DNA from: Escherichia coli | Lineage (GTDB): Bacteria > Pseudomonadota > Gammaproteobacteria > Enterobacterales > Enterobacteriaceae | Direction: 5' to 3' (one strand) | Assembly: GCF_003334385.1 (NCBI RefSeq) | Contig: NZ_QOWN01000073.1 | DNA length: 7,140 nt | Translations under genes and position numbers: made by a program | Part shown: positions 1,761 through 7,140 of the stretch, piece by piece | Position numbering within the stretch: position 1 is the first letter of the stretch | How the letters are laid out: each line of letters begins with the position of its first letter | The notes under the pieces: generated by a model | The model's input: only the letters and a program-made list of their open reading frames with translations | The model's database searches: none | What the model was told of the DNA's origin: nothing

Positions 1761-3251
1761 TTATAAGCCAAAGGATTGCTCATGCCATCTTATCAGTTTC
1801 TGGCTGTAGCACGCATTCAGTTCAGGCAGCGTGATATTGTTTATTTCGGAAAGCAGGACATAGGTGGTTTTTCCTTCCTGCACGACAGAGAGCCTGAGTT
1901 GAGATGCAAGAATGTTCAGCAGGACGTTCAGCTTTTTCCTGTTCCGGAACCGGCCCGGGCCACACTGGAGAATATAATTTTTCCTGACACGGGGCGGGCA
2001 TTCTCCGCGGCACTCCTCAATGAGCCAGTCGAACAGCTCCTCGGCGTCCTTCTGCTGCAGTTCAGATTCATCAGGTAACGCAAATAATTTTTTATATTCA
2101 TCTGTGTACCACGAACTTATTACGACAGCAGACGTCATGATATCGGCAGAGATTTTCCCTTCACCCTGACTGAAATACTGCAATAACGCAGCAATTCTCG
2201 CAATGTTTTCTGTTTTTTTTGAAACATGCCCCCGAAACTGGCTTAAGGGTCCGGAAGGAGACAAATCCTGCTCCAGAACATTATAGTGATCAATAAATAT
2301 TTTTTGCGCTTCAGGAGAAAAATGCAGACAATAACGTTCATCCTTACTGGATTTTTCAATACTGCCTCTGGCCAGTTCCATTAATCGTTCATGAAATGCC
2401 GTTAATGATCCTCCCGGGGTCACAGCTCCGTTAATAAAGCGTTTCCCCTGCGTGGTGGCAGGTTTACTGATTAGACAACGGGCAAGAAAACCACTGTCCC
2501 TGGCAACAGAACCTTTTCGCTCCATATATCGGTCAAAAAGACCGGGTTGTACCATGAGGGATAATGTCATTCTAGCATTTTCAATCATCTGTTCGGGTTC
2601 ATTCTTTCTGTCCACCGACAATACGGAGCCATCCCACATTTTGTTAATAAAAGGCAGCTCAGACAGGGTATACCCATCAAATATTATACCGGCTTCATCA
2701 GACATGATACCCACTGAACGCCACTGACCACAAAGCTGATCTTTAATTGCTGCTGTCGTGGCATCATTAAAAATGAATTTATATCTTACAGGTTTTTCCC
2801 CTCTGTTTTTCTGAAGCGCTTCCAGTTGTCTGAGCGTTTCTGACTCATCCGCGCCTTTGCGGAGTTCTTTATTCAGTTTTGACAACAATGCTTTTTTCTG
2901 CGCCTTTAAAAGCTCTTCCTTATTTTTCCATATCGTCAGTTCATTTTTGTGTCTGGAATATAACAGCATCTCCTGCTGGTACAGGGGCTCCATTAATAAT
3001 TTGTCCACTGCGGTTTTTCGTTCTCCGGACTCAGCAAGCGTCAGTAAGAAAAGAGAAACCGGCCCCCGCAGTGTATTCAGTCTGCAGACATCAATCAGAT
3101 TCTGGCAGACAAGTGAAACAGCGCCCAGGGCAGATGCTGCCACAAGCCCCAGGGGAGCCTGCGTGATTTGCTGAGCTTCAATAACGGCATCACGAATGAG
3201 TGGAGGCAGCGAGCTCAGGGGAAACTCATCAGGATACTGAAAGTATGGCAT
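1761..3251 (-). CDS. P-loop NTPase-like protein, tentatively DUF3987 / YfjI-like family (~496 aa)
   Basis: Long uninterrupted minus-strand ORF in AT-rich DNA, where long chance ORFs are unlikely. Preferred start is ATG at 3251-3249 with GAGGT 5 nt upstream; the track ORF starts at GTG 3269. Stop TAA (complement of 1761-1763). Protein contains a degenerate Walker A-like LAESGERKT and a Walker B-like GIMSDEAG, plus an N-terminal PLSSLPPLIRDAVIEAQQITQAPLGLVAASALGAVSLVCQ stretch that I recall as typical of DUF3987/YfjI-like proteins. Family assignment is recall-based and unverified. Confidence 0.55.
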   Translation of the reverse strand: MPYFQYPDEFPLSSLPPLIRDAVIEAQQITQAPLGLVAASALGAVSLVCQNLIDVCRLNTLRGPVSLFLLTLAESGERKTAVDKLLMEPLYQQEMLLYSRHKNELTIWKNKEELLKAQKKALLSKLNKELRKGADESETLRQLEALQKNRGEKPVRYKFIFNDATTAAIKDQLCGQWRSVGIMSDEAGIIFDGYTLSELPFINKMWDGSVLSVDRKNEPEQMIENARMTLSLMVQPGLFDRYMERKGSVARDSGFLARCLISKPATTQGKRFINGAVTPGGSLTAFHERLMELARGSIEKSSKDERYCLHFSPEAQKIFIDHYNVLEQDLSPSGPLSQFRGHVSKKTENIARIAALLQYFSQGEGKISADIMTSAVVISSWYTDEYKKLFALPDESELQQKDAEELFDWLIEECRGECPPRVRKNYILQCGPGRFRNRKKLNVLLNILASQLRLSVVQEGKTTYVLLSEINNITLPELNACYSQKLIRWHEQSFGL

Positions 3252-3744
3252 AATGACCTCACAACACACAGAACATAAAGTACCGCAACTATTGCTACTA
3301 ATAGCAAAAATAGCAGCAGAATCAATACAGGATAAAAATTTCTGTCGATTTTCAGATTAAATAATAACCATTCGGTATTTTGTCGCTAAAGAATGTTAGA
3401 ATGAATCTGTGCGTCTACGGGCGCTCTCCGGAACACACATGTTGATTAATTTTCACACAACAACGTACCAGCAAAAAGCATCATCCAGGGTATTGCAGGT
3501 ACGGGTTTCCTGCCGGGAATAAACATAAACAGTTTCCCCGGAGTAACGCTTTCAGAAAACTGCCCTCCTGAAGAAGAATAAAATAAAGAAGATGACAGTT
3601 CCTGCACTGAATGCTGAGTACAATATTCTATGGACAGGATGACATTTTTATAAATAACAAAAACCATTTAATACTGATACATCAATAAAATACTTCCTCC
3701 CTGCTGACACAGATAAAATGCAACATTTTTTCTTCAAATACTTC

Positions 3745-3753
3745 TGTATAATC
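3745..3753 (+). promoter_or_regulatory. candidate sigma70 extended -10 element (TGTATAAT) inside the AT-rich region
   Basis: tgTATAAT at 3745-3752 on the + strand with no good -35. AT-rich DNA produces many such matches, so this is weak. Confidence 0.2.
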
Positions 3754-4084
3754 GCCAGCCAATGATGAGAATGGATTAAAATAACACTTCTTCGACAAAC
3801 ACAAAAACCAGCCTTCATTTTCACATCATCATCCAGTTTTAATTAAACCCTGACGAGCGACAGTATTTCAGTTCAGGAATTAAAAGCCAGCTATTACTCA
3901 GTAAAAACACCACCAACTAATAATATCTCAGCAGATATTTCCTGACCAGGATGACACATTTATTAAAGATTTTTAACAGGACACTTCACATTACTGAACG
4001 CTATTCCGACAGTATCACTACACAAATAAAAAAGGGAACTGGATAAATATTCATGCCGGAAGAATGGTGTAACAAAAGCATTTA

Positions 4085-4097
4085 ATCATTACGTGCG
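4085..4097. repeat. 13-bp direct repeat, copy 1 (atcattacgtgcg)
   Basis: Exact 13-mer atcattacgtgcg at 4085-4097, repeated at 4209-4221; the two copies flank the 30-bp palindrome. Confidence 0.6.
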
Positions 4098-4110
4098 TAT
4101 TCCTCTCTAT

Positions 4111-4140
4111 TCGATCACGGTTTGGCCAAACCGTGATCGA
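4111..4140. repeat. perfect 30-bp palindrome (15+15, no spacer) carrying two GATC sites
   Basis: tcgatcacggtttgg|ccaaaccgtgatcga is exactly self-complementary; GATC at 4113-4116 and 4135-4138; central TGGCCA. Read directly from the sequence. Confidence 0.9.
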
Positions 4141-4208
4141 TTCAGATGCCATTTTGCAAGTACGCATGACCCGGAAGGGAAACACTTAACAACATGGTAT
4201 CAACAGAT

Positions 4209-4221
4209 ATCATTACGTGCG
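4209..4221. repeat. 13-bp direct repeat, copy 2 (atcattacgtgcg)
   Basis: Exact second copy of the 13-mer at 4085-4097. Confidence 0.6.
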
Positions 4222-4527
4222 CACTCTTATAAAAATACACAGCAGAAGCAAGATAACTCTAAACGTAAATTTAATATCTCCCACTGACTGCCCCGACAAT
4301 ATACTGAAAAATACTCACCTCAGTAAACATAAACACACCTGATAATCAGGCTGCAAGATGAATATTTTTCTCCTTTACGGAGTAATCAGCCTGCTGTTTA
4401 ACAATAACCGCGTATTTTCATGGAAGGATATCACCCAATAACGGATAACTCCTGCCCTCCTTCATGTTAATACGCAACATCCCCATCGATTCCAAACAAT
4501 TTCAGACAGATATTATCTCCGTGAATC

Positions 4528-4567
4528 CCCCGCCACCTTTCCGGTGTGCGGGGTTTTGTCTTTTTTC
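4528..4567 (+). terminator. intrinsic (Rho-independent) terminator-like hairpin plus T-tract immediately upstream of the GTPase start codon
   Basis: Stem ccccgccacc (4528-4537) pairs with ggtgtgcgggg (4543-4553) as 10 bp with one bulged T, loop tttcc, followed by ttttgtctttttt (4554-4567). GTPase ATG is at 4583. Confidence 0.5.
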
Positions 4568-4582
4568 ACCGGGAATACATGT

Positions 4583-5455
4583 ATGAATCCGTCTGATGCC
4601 ATTGAGGCAATTGAAAAACCACTTTCTTCCCTGCCTTACTCGCTTTCCCGTCACATCCTGGAACATCTGCGCAAACTCACCAGTCACGAACCCGTGATTG
4701 GCATTATGGGTAAAAGCGGGGCCGGTAAATCCTCACTCTGTAATGCGCTGTTTCAGGGGGAGGTCACCCCGGTCAGTGATGTTCACGCCGGCACCCGGGA
4801 AGTGCGGCGCTTCCGTCTGAGTGGTCACGGTCACAGCATGGTTATCACTGACCTGCCCGGGGTGGGCGAGAGCCGGGACAGGGATGCAGAGTATGAAGCC
4901 CTGTACCGTGACATTCTGCCTGAACTGGACCTGGTGCTGTGGCTGATTAAAGCCGATGACCGGGCCCTGTCTGTGGATGAGTATTTCTGGCGACACATCC
5001 TGCAGTGCGGACATCAGCAGGTGCTGTTTGTGGTGACACAGGCCGACAAAACGGAGCCCTGCCATGAATGGGATATGGCCGGCATTCAGCCCTCTCCCGC
5101 ACAGGCACAGAACATTCGCGAAAAAACGGAGGCGGTATTCCGTCTGTTCCGGCCTGTACATCCGGTTGTGGCCGTATCGGCCCGCACCGGCTGGGAACTG
5201 GATACGCTGGTCAGTGCGCTCATGACAGCGCTTCCCGACCATGCCGCCAGTCCCCTGATGACCCGCCTGCAGGACGAGCTGCGCACGGAATCTGTCCGCG
5301 CTCAGGCCCGTGAGCAGTTTACCGGTGCGGTGGACCGGATATTTGACACAGCGGAGAGCGTCTGTGTTGCCTCTGTTGCACGCACGGTTCTGCGTGCCGT
5401 CCGTGACACAGTGGTCTCTGTTGCCCGCGCGGTATGGAACTGGATCTTCTTCTGA
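4583..5455 (+). CDS. yeeP: YeeP/YkfA/YfjP-family GTPase (50S ribosome-binding GTPase-like, 290 aa), apparently intact
   Basis: Translation MNPSDAIEAIEKPLSSLPYSLSRHILEHLRKLTSHEPVIGIMGKSGAGKSSLCNALFQGEV... contains G1/Walker A GKSGAGKSS, G3 DLPG and G4-like TQADK. I recognise the sequence as the island GTPase found directly upstream of flu. The track ORF 4544..5455 begins inside the upstream hairpin; ATG at 4583 is the more plausible start. Stop TGA 5453-5455. Confidence 0.88.
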   Translation: MNPSDAIEAIEKPLSSLPYSLSRHILEHLRKLTSHEPVIGIMGKSGAGKSSLCNALFQGEVTPVSDVHAGTREVRRFRLSGHGHSMVITDLPGVGESRDRDAEYEALYRDILPELDLVLWLIKADDRALSVDEYFWRHILQCGHQQVLFVVTQADKTEPCHEWDMAGIQPSPAQAQNIREKTEAVFRLFRPVHPVVAVSARTGWELDTLVSALMTALPDHAASPLMTRLQDELRTESVRAQAREQFTGAVDRIFDTAESVCVASVARTVLRAVRDTVVSVARAVWNWIFF

Positions 5456-5539
5456 ACCTGTTGTGGATGATGTCCTCCTTGCCTCTGAGTCTGCTCACAA
5501 AAGCGCTGTTTTCGTTACTGTCTCTCTTGTCCGTGCAAT

Positions 5540-5610
5540 AGCTTGATAATAGAATAAAACGATCGATACCTATTTTATCGATCGTTAATATCGATCGCTA
5601 TACTAATAAT
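5540..5610 (+). promoter_or_regulatory. agn43 (flu) promoter / phase-variation switch: OxyR-binding region with three Dam GATC sites
   Basis: Three CGATCG motifs with GATC at 5561-5564, 5580-5583 and 5593-5596 (spacings 19 and 13 bp), ~200 bp upstream of the flu ATG. This matches the known Dam/OxyR epigenetic switch of agn43. Exact -35/-10 and TSS cannot be fixed from sequence alone; TTGATA at 5543-5548 is a candidate -35. Confidence 0.8.
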
Positions 5611-5760
5611 AACTCCTGTTAGCAACGTGCGCAGATACACACAGACATGAGATTCAGGGAACAACAGAGCCACACGTCAGAAACTTCCGTCAGCCGGACC
5701 TCCGGCACTGTAACCCTTTACCTGCCGGTATCCACATCTGTGGATACCGGCTTTTTTATT
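5567..5760 (+). ncRNA. isrC: agn43 leader RNA / IsrC-like small RNA (prematurely terminated flu 5' leader); boundaries approximate
   Basis: The 3' end is defined by the intrinsic terminator at 5724-5760; the 5' end is assumed to be the flu TSS near the GATC cluster. From memory, an sRNA (IsrC) is annotated in the yeeP-flu intergenic region of E. coli K-12; coordinates here are inferred, not verified. Confidence 0.4.
5724..5760 (+). terminator. intrinsic terminator in the flu leader, ~30 nt upstream of the flu start codon
   Basis: Perfect 12-bp stem gccggtatccac (5724-5735) / gtggataccggc (5740-5751), loop atct, followed by ttttttatt (5752-5760). Confidence 0.75.
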
Positions 5761-5788
5761 CACCCTCACTCTGATTAAGGAAATGCTG

Positions 5789-7140
5789 ATGAAACGACAT
5801 CTGAATACCTGCTACAGGCTGGTATGGAATCACATTACGGGCGCTTTCGTGGTTGCCTCCGAACTGGCCCGCGCACGGGGTAAACGTGGCGGTGTGGCGG
5901 TTGCACTGTCTCTTGCCGCGGTCACGTCACTCCCGGTGCTGGCTGCTGACATCGTTGTGCACCCGGGTGAAACAGTGAATGGCGGAACACTGGTAAACCA
6001 TGACAACCAGTTTGTATCCGGAACAGCTGATGGCGTGACTGTCAGTACCGGGCTTGAGCTGGGGCCGGACAGTGACGAAAACACCGGCGGGCAATGGATA
6101 AAAGCGGGTGGCACAGGCAGAAACACCACTGTCACCGCAAATGGTCGTCAGATTGTGCAGGCAGGAGGAACTGCCAGTGATACGGTTATTCGTGATGGCG
6201 GAGGGCAGAGCCTTAACGGACTGGCGGTGAACACCACGCTGGATAACAGAGGTGAGCAGTGGGTACACGGGGGAGGGAAAGCTGCCGGTACAATTATTAA
6301 CCAGGATGGTTACCAGACCATAAAACATGGCGGACTGGCAACCGGAACCATCGTCAACACCGGTGCAGAAGGTGGTCCGGAGTCTGAAAATGTGTCCAGC
6401 GGTCAGATGGTCGGAGGGACGGCTGAATCCACCACCATCAACAAAAATGGCCGGCAGGTTATCTGGTCTTCGGGGATGGCACGGGACCCCCTCATTTACG
6501 CCGGTGGTGACCAGACGGTACACGGAGAGGCACATAACACCCGGCTGGAGGGGGGTAACCAGTATGTACACAACGGTGGCACGGCAACAGAGACGCTGAT
6601 AAACCGTGATGGCTGGCAGGTGATTAAGGAAGGAGGAACTGCCGCGCATACCACCATCAACCAGAAAGGAAAGCTGCAGGTGAATGCCGGCGGTAAAGCG
6701 TCTGATGTCACCCAGAACACGGGCGGTGCACTGGTTACCAGTACAGCTGCAACCGTCACCGGCACAAACCGCCTGGGAGCATTCTCCGTTGTGGCGGGTA
6801 AGGCTGATAATGTCGTACTGGAAAATGGCGGACGTCTGGATGTGCTGAGCGGACACACAGCCACTAATACCCGCGTGGATGATGGCGGAACGCTGGATGT
6901 CCGCAATGGTGGTACCGCTACCACCGTATCCATGGGGAATGGCGGGGTACTGCTGGCCGATTCCGGGGCCGCTGTCAGTGGTACCCGGAGCGACGGAACG
7001 GCATTCCGTATCGGAGGCGGTCAGGCGGATGCCCTGATGCTGGAAAAAGGCAGTTCCTTCACACTGAACGCCGGTGATACGGCCACGGATACCACGGTAA
7101 ATGGCGGACTGTTCACCGCCAGGGGCGGCACACTGGCGGG
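5789..7140 (+). CDS. flu: antigen 43 (Ag43) self-associating autotransporter adhesin, 5' partial (first ~450 codons; continues beyond window end)
   Basis: ATG at 5789 with AAGGA at 5777-5781 (7-nt spacer). Translation begins MKRHLNTCYRLVWNHITGAFVVASELARARGKRGGVAVALSLAAVTSLPVLAADIVVHPGETVNGGTL..., the extended autotransporter signal peptide of Ag43 (predicted cleavage after ...PVLA, about nt 5944). It continues with the beta-helix passenger repeats (GGTA..T.VN.GG pattern). Recognised from recall of Ag43; no stop codon in frame before 7140. Confidence 0.95.
   Translation, partial: MKRHLNTCYRLVWNHITGAFVVASELARARGKRGGVAVALSLAAVTSLPVLAADIVVHPGETVNGGTLVNHDNQFVSGTADGVTVSTGLELGPDSDENTGGQWIKAGGTGRNTTVTANGRQIVQAGGTASDTVIRDGGGQSLNGLAVNTTLDNRGEQWVHGGGKAAGTIINQDGYQTIKHGGLATGTIVNTGAEGGPESENVSSGQMVGGTAESTTINKNGRQVIWSSGMARDPLIYAGGDQTVHGEAHNTRLEGGNQYVHNGGTATETLINRDGWQVIKEGGTAAHTTINQKGKLQVNAGGKASDVTQNTGGALVTSTAATVTGTNRLGAFSVVAGKADNVVLENGGRLDVLSGHTATNTRVDDGGTLDVRNGGTATTVSMGNGGVLLADSGAAVSGTRSDGTAFRIGGGQADALMLEKGSSFTLNAGDTATDTTVNGGLFTARGGTLA

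Follow-up and report, generated by a model that had tools for sequence, protein, structure and literature searches.

The closest described relatives of the DNA that we studied are three elements of Escherichia coli K-12: CP4-44 (yeeP-isrC-flu), CP4-57 (alpA-yfjI...yfjP-yfjQ), and CP4-6 (ykfA-yafZ). We analysed a stretch of 7,140 nucleotides from E. coli (contig NZ_QOWN01000073.1 of assembly GCF_003334385.1), which we call the window, and it is part of an integrative island of the CP4-44/CP4-57 type. Its island has the same backbone gene set in the same order, and it shares with the K-12 elements an AlpA-type helix-turn-helix (HTH) protein, YfjI, a GTPase of the YeeP/YfjP/YkfA family, the IsrC RNA, Ag43, DUF932, antirestriction, RadC/JAB, DUF987, and CbtA/CbeA. 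An earlier look at the letters, which we refer to as the sequence-only reading, had noticed that an AT-rich gene and intergenic region abut a GC-richer GTPase gene and flu, and had proposed that modules of different origin were joined there. We find that the GC step is the right edge of a variable cargo slot, where the slot meets the conserved leader of the GTPase gene.

The best match to the window (L001 among the loci that we compared) is a region of an E. coli chromosome that is 99.8% identical to it. The annotation of L001 runs HTH regulator, hypothetical protein, YfjI family protein, a 1.3 kb gap, GTPase family protein, and Ag43, and 3' of Ag43 come DUF905, DUF932, antirestriction, JAB/RadC, DUF987, CbeA/CbtA, DUF5983, DUF957, and DUF4942. 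Together these genes form a backbone of the CP4-44/CP4-57 type (a YeeP/YfjP/YkfA-family GTPase gene and then DUF932, antirestriction, RadC/JAB, DUF987, and CbtA/CbeA), and the IsrC RNA and agn43/flu with three GATC sites 3' of the GTPase gene give the arrangement of CP4-44. Across the island family, the full backbone comprises a Gp2-family gene, Hha, an AlpA-like HTH gene, a hypothetical gene that we call 'hyp200', the variable slot, the GTPase, Ag43 or other genes, DUF932, antirestriction, RadC/JAB, and CbeA/CbtA. There are paralogous islands within genomes, with a median of 3 and a maximum of 16 matching places per genome. Of the P4-type integrase and the tRNA or tmRNA attachment site that such an island would have, we found neither an integrase nor a tRNA in the window or within 20 kb leftward in L001; those 20 kb carry insertion sequence (IS) elements of the IS66, IS110, and IS3 types along with sialic-acid genes.

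The window also differs from the K-12 elements. Its yfjI and its AlpA-like gene lie in opposite orientations, and yfjI is followed by 1.2 kb of non-coding, AT-rich spacer DNA that has no counterpart in K-12. Unlike the window's GTPase gene, K-12 yeeP is 5'-truncated. The proteins of CP4-57 are only moderately similar to those of the window, at 52% identity for YfjI and 50% for the GTPase.

In a sliding profile and in segment statistics, the window has three compositional domains rather than two: GC is about 0.48 up to about position 3220, 0.382 in 3252-4582, and 0.57-0.59 from about 4630. The change points found by binary segmentation lie at 3221 (z = 6.2) and 4628 (z = -9.6). So the large, abrupt rise that had been seen by eye is real and lies near where it was placed (0.382 versus 0.588), but the AT-rich side is not the single block from 1761 to 4540 that had been described. 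The low GC belongs to the intergenic gap, and yfjI (1761-3251, minus strand) has a GC of 0.457 and a GC at third codon positions (GC3) of 0.463, with values of 0.40-0.53 across blocks of 250 bp. Similarly, the GTPase gene (4583-5455, plus strand; GC 0.588, GC3 0.639) and flu are GC-richer, as claimed, but they are interrupted by a dip to 0.45 at 5456-5788, which is the IsrC/flu regulatory spacer. The other backbone genes of the island are likewise GC-rich, with GC3 of 0.52-0.65. For comparison, the GC of the E. coli genome is about 0.51.

The step itself is unusual in size. Comparing the 1200 bp before position 4583 with the 870 bp after it gives a difference of 0.198; among 1,396 sliding positions from four E. 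coli island and context loci, only 0.21% have a step at least as large. A rise into the GTPase gene is nevertheless a feature of the family. When we compared the gene with the 1.2 kb upstream of the leader, GC rose in 73 of 74 loci from many genera (mean 0.421 upstream versus 0.541 in the GTPase gene, a mean difference of 0.12; Wilcoxon p = 8e-14), and the window's difference of 0.215 was equalled by one locus only. The hosts of these loci differ widely in genomic GC, and yet the GC of the GTPase gene stays within 0.50-0.62 across host genera, which suggests that its composition is intrinsic to the element. A compositional mosaic is ordinary for a genomic island, and it adds little by itself.

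The distribution of the pieces among genomes tells more. The GTPase gene was found in 4,580 of 5,426 genomes. A query of yfjI and the first 350 bp of the gap (3252-4489) was covered over at least 80% of its length in 1,840 genomes; a second query, made of the last 380 bp of the gap and the GTPase gene, reached the same coverage in 1,840 genomes and gave some match in 4,580. As a query by itself, the gap reached this coverage in 1,813 genomes, where it is 87-100% identical and nowhere annotated. The link between yfjI and the gap is constant, and in 1,840 genomes the two are contiguous with the GTPase gene. In genomes with only the GTPase gene, homology begins at positions 286-292 of the second query, which correspond to 4485-4491 of the window. 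Pairwise BLAST against eight loci puts breakpoints at 4476-4494 and, equally sharp, at 5457, the stop codon of the GTPase gene, and in the alignment all eight E. coli loci are nearly invariant from about 4489, whatever DNA lies upstream. Synteny in relatives was the comparison that the sequence-only reading had pointed to, and the relatives do differ, with sharp breaks at 4485-4491 and 5457.

In other islands, the space from 'hyp200' to the GTPase gene is taken up by a hypothetical gene of 290 or 383 amino acids, pseudogenes, IS elements, or a group II intron, and the slot of K-12 CP4-57 holds yfjJ, AbpAB, yfjM, and RnlAB. One yfjI allele occurs with two 'hyp200' alleles that are only 37% identical to each other. 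Judged from these comparisons, the locus is a mosaic of small exchangeable units, of which yfjI and the gap together are one slot allele. Neither 1761-4540 nor GTPase-flu is a single unit; rather, the GTPase gene, the IsrC spacer, and agn43 recombine as separate units. The idea of a single GTPase-flu module fails on several counts: homology of the GTPase gene stops at 5457, the IsrC spacer is replaced elsewhere, identity is 73-98% in flu versus 94-97% in the GTPase gene, and in one island dynamin-family genes stand in for flu. As for the proposal that the junction lies near a palindrome and a terminator, the terminator side holds, with homology starting at 4485-4491, about 40 bp before the hairpin; the palindrome belongs to a separate 67-bp insert, which we describe below.

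Two further observations concern the slot. In strain 4FM (L007 1-8177), an IS1 element abuts the gap at the equivalent of window position 3305 and yfjI is absent; the cargo upstream is a DUF1156 gene with a DEAD/DEAH helicase gene, an example of IS-mediated remodelling of the slot. Also, three GTPase loci of enterobacterial type (L014, L028, and L042) lie on contigs of metagenome bins that are labelled Lachnospiraceae, Bacillota, or Clostridiales, and one of the three is 96% identical to the window, including the 3' end of the gap. Their placement probably reflects contamination of the bins rather than transfer to Firmicutes.

To the right, the step coincides with the beginning of a conserved transcription unit that is led by a promoter and has an intrinsic-terminator-like leader, for which we have evidence of conservation, of structure, and, at the paralogues, of promoter binding. 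The GTPase (Pfam MMR_HSR1, E = 5.7e-14) belongs to the MMR_HSR1/Era-like group, is 50% identical to K-12 YfjP, and anchors the right backbone; its gene is 94-97% identical at the DNA level in all E. coli loci compared. A predicted sigma-70 promoter for this unit lies at 4490-4516 on the plus strand, with a -35 of TTCCAA (4490-4495), a spacer of 15 nt, and a -10 of TATTAT (4511-4516). The synteny breakpoint coincides with the -35, as homology to other islands begins at 4485-4494. Overlapping the -10 and the expected transcription start is a near-palindromic site of 25 bp, TTCAG-N15-GTGAA (4501-4525), which is a candidate operator; it matches on both strands, it is unique in a 47-kb island context, and it is also found upstream of K-12 yfjP. 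K-12 CP4-57 has, upstream of the pseudogene ypjI (L010 21455-21479), a further copy of the palindromic promoter site that is degenerate, with 2 mismatches. If this copy is a relic of another GTPase leader, as it may be, CP4-57 would seem to have arisen from two fused islands.

The sequence-only reading had placed a terminator near the transition, at 4528-4567, and a hairpin with a T-run is present at 4528-4566 on the plus strand. The hairpin (4528-4553) is CCCCGCCACC / GGTGTGCGGGG, with 10 pairs, 1 bulge, and a 5-nt loop, and the T-run (4554-4566) is TTTTGTCTTTTTT; it ends 16 nt before the ATG at 4583. That ATG, not the GTG at 4544, is the annotated start of the GTPase gene, and 4544-4582 is leader. 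The centroid structure has a predicted stability of -19.5 kcal/mol in the window, and the three E. coli types give -19.5, -26.9, and -16.5 kcal/mol.

To see the leader across genera, we scanned with an alignment of the GTPase, using one genome per species, and obtained 80 loci from Escherichia, Citrobacter, Klebsiella, Enterobacter, Salmonella, Yersinia, Serratia, Photorhabdus, Xenorhabdus, Erwinia, Dickeya, Pectobacterium, and others. The leader, with its promoter, palindromic site, and hairpin, stands before the GTPase gene at every one of the 81 loci that we examined across Enterobacterales; a site centred on ATATYAT lies 70-84 nt before the ATG in 81 of 81 leaders, and its core columns are at least 90% conserved. 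(The leaders are at 4490-4582 in the window, 13600-13710 in L010, 10962-11070 on the minus strand in L012, and in the roughly 115 nt before the GTPase start in L013-L092.) For 76 distinct leaders, RNAalifold predicts a hairpin of 10 pairs with compensatory changes in 9 of them. In that alignment 84.5% of leader cells can pair, versus 60.2% when shuffled and 37-50% when the partners are slid by 1-3 columns, and the covariation score of 0.564 (versus 0.197) was reached in 0 of 500 shuffles. With a GC-rich stem-loop, a U-run, and compensatory conservation, the leader looks like an intrinsic terminator. The K-12 paralogues yfjP and ykfA, whose products share about 50% identity with the window's GTPase, have the same leader plan with different stem sequences. 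Genomic SELEX (systematic evolution of ligands by exponential enrichment) with the sigma-70 (RpoD) holoenzyme found a constitutive promoter, 'TTGAAA-15-TATCAT', upstream of both ykfA and yfjP (PMC3946193). The leader is absent from Rfam, and we found no description of it in the literature that we searched. It seems to be the only element of the locus that is undescribed.

In the predicted folds of the yfjP and ykfA leaders (L010 13689-13713 and L012 10959-10985), the U-rich tract forms a second helix with the Shine-Dalgarno region, AGAGGAG, a hint that translation may be controlled along with transcription. The window's leader has a weaker counterpart of this helix.

The best overall explanation, of which we are fairly confident, is that the step marks the right edge of the slot, with a slot allele on the left and the conserved GTPase transcription unit on the right. 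The slot allele would consist of the DUF3987 helicase gene yfjI and 1.2 kb of AT-rich, fast-evolving, apparently non-coding spacer, and the transcription unit would start exactly at the -35 of its own promoter, at 4490. Modules may be exchanged by homologous recombination between paralogous islands of one genome, with the GTPase gene and its leader serving as the anchor. The low GC of the slot would then reflect foreign or weakly constrained DNA, of the kind that is usually silenced by H-NS/Hha. The window resembles such silenced, acquired DNA in the gap's GC of 0.38 versus about 0.51 and in the Hha-family gene of related islands, and it differs in that the hha of the best-matching genome is a truncated pseudogene.

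Several points weigh against this explanation. No donor lineage of the AT-rich part was found: that the locus is an exchangeable mosaic stands, but the case for modules of different origin is one of synteny and composition only. Part of the GC contrast is just the expected difference between non-coding and coding DNA, together with the amino-acid make-up of the GTPase and Ag43. We placed the breakpoints from 45 records, sampled across the set, and from the eight aligned loci, not from all 4,580 genomes. Finally, the -35 of TTCCAA agrees with the consensus at 3 of 6 positions, and a simple promoter scan did not list this site.

We considered other accounts of the gap, which is a G-poor and open reading frame (ORF)-poor stretch. 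Its plus strand is A.362, C.225, G.152, and T.261, it has no annotation in any of the genomes listed, and its identity to relatives ranges from 35% to 97% with many insertions and deletions, while the flanking genes are 94-98% identical. In L008, for example, it is indel-rich and 35-72% identical between genes that are 94-98% identical. Could it be what is left of one or more cargo genes, a pseudogene tract on its way to deletion? We think this unlikely, though there is an obvious candidate. In at least 20 related loci, an AT-rich gene (GC 0.33-0.40) of 290-400 amino acids ends exactly at the start of the GTPase leader, so its position, length, and GC are like those of the gap. These genes (L002 8124-8996, L005 8124-8996, L004 7864-9015, L029 2999-3916, and at least 16 further loci) form one BLAST-connected family with variable N-termini. 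The rapid, indel-rich divergence of the gap and its A-rich plus strand fit a dead gene, and so does its length: the stretch before the window's GTPase gene that has no ORF of 80 or more amino acids is 1,313 bp, which is atypical given a family median of 185 bp, with only 2 of 72 loci reaching 1 kb. On the other hand, tblastn with 20 members of the family, and a profile hidden Markov model against six-frame translations, gave only noise for three variants of the gap (best E values of 0.06 to 0.6), as did tblastn with the slot genes of other islands. In the gap C exceeds G, while in the gene family G (.213) exceeds C (.163), which is wrong for coding on the plus strand, and the longest ORFs in the gap have no match in NCBIfam.

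A less probable alternative is that the gap is a cis-acting origin of replication (or transfer) that YfjI serves, as in the rep-ori arrangement of Staphylococcus aureus pathogenicity islands (SaPI) and phage-inducible chromosomal islands (PICI). In that case, low GC would be functional. YfjI is a plausible partner, as it matches the DUF3987 family over its full length (PF13148, model positions 1-363 of 364, E = 2.4e-94), a family with conserved Walker A and B motifs, and it matches PHROG 2373, 'DNA helicase', with E = 7e-82; helicase activity is predicted. A DUF3987 protein from the replication module of a mobile element is a replicative-type 5'->3' helicase (PMC11724360). And the gap is AT-rich and always linked to yfjI. 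So the window does share with the SaPI/PICI rep-ori and with PriCT-DUF3987 primase-helicase modules a DUF3987 helicase gene beside AT-rich non-coding DNA. But it lacks the iterons, the DnaA boxes, and the primase partner of those systems, and its AT-rich DNA is poorly conserved. More precisely, the gap has no DnaA boxes, P4-type iterons, or IHF sites, its largest k-mer families are at the level of shuffled sequence, it has no tandem repeats, and its direct and inverted repeats form only two-copy families of low identity. Iterons or initiator boxes at an AT-rich unwinding element, conserved together with the initiator, are what a rep-ori would have, and the gap does not have them: in L008 it has diverged far more than yfjI. 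The window has no primase or initiator gene alongside yfjI, and the K-12 paralogue of yfjI (52% identical at the protein level) adjoins no such region. We regard an origin as quite improbable.

It is hardly credible that there is no mosaic at all, with the step being an effect of coding versus non-coding DNA and of amino-acid composition within one co-inherited segment: the lowest GC does fall on the non-coding stretch, and the GTPase and Ag43 genes have high GC1 and GC2 as well, but the synteny breakpoints at 4485-4491 and 5457 are sharp and shared, 60% of the genomes with the GTPase gene have different cargo upstream, GC3 differs too (0.463 in yfjI versus 0.639 in the GTPase gene), and adjacent segments have discordant identity profiles.

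We conclude that the gap is lineage-specific, weakly constrained non-coding DNA that is attached to yfjI. It must contain the promoter of yfjI. Among the upstream regions of GTPase loci that we compared, none from beyond E. coli has a homologue of the gap, and few have a long stretch without ORFs before the GTPase gene, so we rejected the idea that the gap is a feature of the whole family. The gap contains no ops/RfaH element. Over the window, Rfam 15 at E <= 1 finds only IS102/IsrC and nothing in the gap or the leader, and the window has no tRNA. A motif of 32 nt with CAGGATGACA occurs twice in the gap, at 3623-3654 and 3935-3966, which are 312 bp apart and 75% identical. Several other weak repeats are also about 296-312 bp apart, which could be chance or an ancient duplication.

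The palindrome is another matter. It is a perfect palindrome of 30 bp (4111-4140) within an inserted repeat of 67 bp (4094-4160) that is flanked by a duplication of TAC and contains two GATC sites. L006 and L007, which are otherwise collinear with the window at this site, lack the 67-bp segment. In 2,837 E. coli genomes there are 6,903 places with a similar sequence, of which 743 are on plasmids; a single genome can have as many as 50, and each half also gives matches of its own. There are related copies at L009 4001-4078 and L001 18167-18238. One half-copy lies beside a truncated fragment of a DDE transposase, and the 67-bp element looks like a small mobile repeat or one derived from the end of an IS. 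We rejected the palindrome as a marker of the junction: it lies in a polymorphic insert that collinear relatives lack and that is repeated elsewhere. The 67-bp segment is a small repeated insert in its own right and marks no boundary between modules.

Downstream of the GTPase gene, the spacer at 5456-5788 (GC 0.45) contains the IsrC RNA, also called IS102 RNA, at 5559-5764 on the plus strand (Rfam RF00124, 256 bits). Of this spacer, the segment 5458-5718 has no homologue in the other islands that we compared (L002-L008), though both of its flanks match. Three GATC sites stand at the start of IsrC (5561, 5580, and 5593), an arrangement that matches the known Dam/OxyR phase-variation switch of agn43. 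A promoter scan of the window lists TTGTCC-17-TAGAAT at 5527-5555 on the plus strand as the promoter of isrC, in agreement with the SELEX table, which gives the same promoter for isrC (PMC3946193). The 5' part of agn43/flu, which encodes the Ag43 autotransporter, follows at 5789-7140 on the plus strand with a GC of 0.58. It is a separate recombination unit: from 5719 onward, identity to the other islands is 73-98%, uncoupled from the 94-97% of the GTPase gene. In one island, genes for a dynamin-family protein, RdcB, and patatin take the place of flu.

The left backbone of the window has two genes on the plus strand. The first (776-982), annotated as an HTH regulator, encodes an AlpA/TorI-type winged-helix protein, an excisionase or regulator, of 68 amino acids (Pfam Phage_AlpA, E = 1.2e-8; PHROG 'excisionase and transcriptional regulator', E = 1.9e-9), with matches in PDB to 8c3t (AlpA family) and 1z4h (TorI). 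It is 25% identical to K-12 AlpA. The second is 'hyp190/200' (1068-1640), a hypothetical gene that is conserved in position and highly diverged in sequence: it is 37% identical (E = 1e-42) to the gene in the same position in L002 and L006, and its product matches no family in Pfam, NCBIfam, PADLOC, or PHROG. Homologues of it adjoin an AlpA-like gene in 21 loci of other genera. In other genera (L019-L091), the AlpA-like (66-81% identical) and 'hyp200' genes lie 1.4-3.3 kb upstream of the GTPase start on the opposite strand, divergent from the GTPase gene, whereas in the E. coli islands all three genes point the same way; the segment has therefore been inverted in one lineage. The island family also carries a gene of the Hha/YmoA family (L001 18415-18594, L002 3714-3925, L005 1589-1777, and L006 3366-3515), which is a pseudogene in 2 of the 4. 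An Hha/YmoA gene on the island may bear on H-NS-dependent silencing of AT-rich cargo.

What might the leader do? Its hairpin may attenuate transcription that enters the backbone operon, or insulate the operon from it. The closest described systems of this kind are lambda PR'-tR' with Q and Pseudomonas aeruginosa PalpB-tB with AlpA, which share with the leader a constitutive sigma-70 promoter, an embedded sequence like a protein site, a close intrinsic terminator, and a long operon (PMC7969949). In P. aeruginosa, the antiterminator AlpA controls the alpB and PA0807 promoters (PMC7969949, PMC9371919). Like a Q/AlpA-type cassette, the leader appears to combine a promoter with an embedded candidate factor site and a terminator before the first gene; on the other hand, we identified no antiterminator related to lambda Q, 21Q, or P. 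aeruginosa AlpA in the element. The AlpA-like protein of the window was rejected as a Q-like antiterminator. It lacks the N-terminal ring-forming segment of P. aeruginosa AlpA (PMC9371919), and its PDB matches are only to 8c3t, an AlpA-family protein of 73 amino acids, and to TorI (1z4h), with none to the P. aeruginosa AlpA chains. As the 68-amino-acid protein is of the TorI/Xis type and has no detectable relation to P. aeruginosa AlpA, the shared name carries no weight.

Tentatively, the boundary could be a regulatory gate. A constitutive sigma-70 promoter would overlie the 25-bp operator, the terminator would come about 5 nt into the transcript, and by default transcription would abort as an RNA of about 45 nt, until a factor from the island or the host switched on the backbone by antitermination or de-attenuation. 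The genes behind such a gate would be those for Ag43, antirestriction, RadC, and CbtA/CbeA. Candidates for the switch would be the ribbon-helix-helix (RHH)-like protein that is often encoded immediately upstream and the AlpA/TorI-like HTH protein. The former is the family of 290-400 amino acids that we described above, whose C-terminus looks RHH-like by eye only (Pfam RHH_7, E = 0.25) and which has no family in Pfam, NCBIfam, PADLOC, or PHROG; it is a candidate regulator of the adjacent GTPase promoter. As for the latter, 28 of 78 loci have an AlpA-like gene (66-81% identity) in the 4 kb upstream, in most cases transcribed divergently from the GTPase gene. Such proximity would fit a regulatory link without proving it.

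If there is such a gate, then it would be an undescribed family of cis-regulatory elements that controls the gene set of a very widespread island. If the leader gates Ag43, antirestriction, and toxin-antitoxin genes, this would explain how "cryptic" islands stay quiet and get switched on. More immediately, with its right edge at the -35 of the GTPase promoter, the cargo slot of a very common family of E. coli islands is precisely defined, which should help in annotating these islands and in mining their cargo. In K-12, the equivalent slot holds the anti-phage systems AbpAB and RnlAB.

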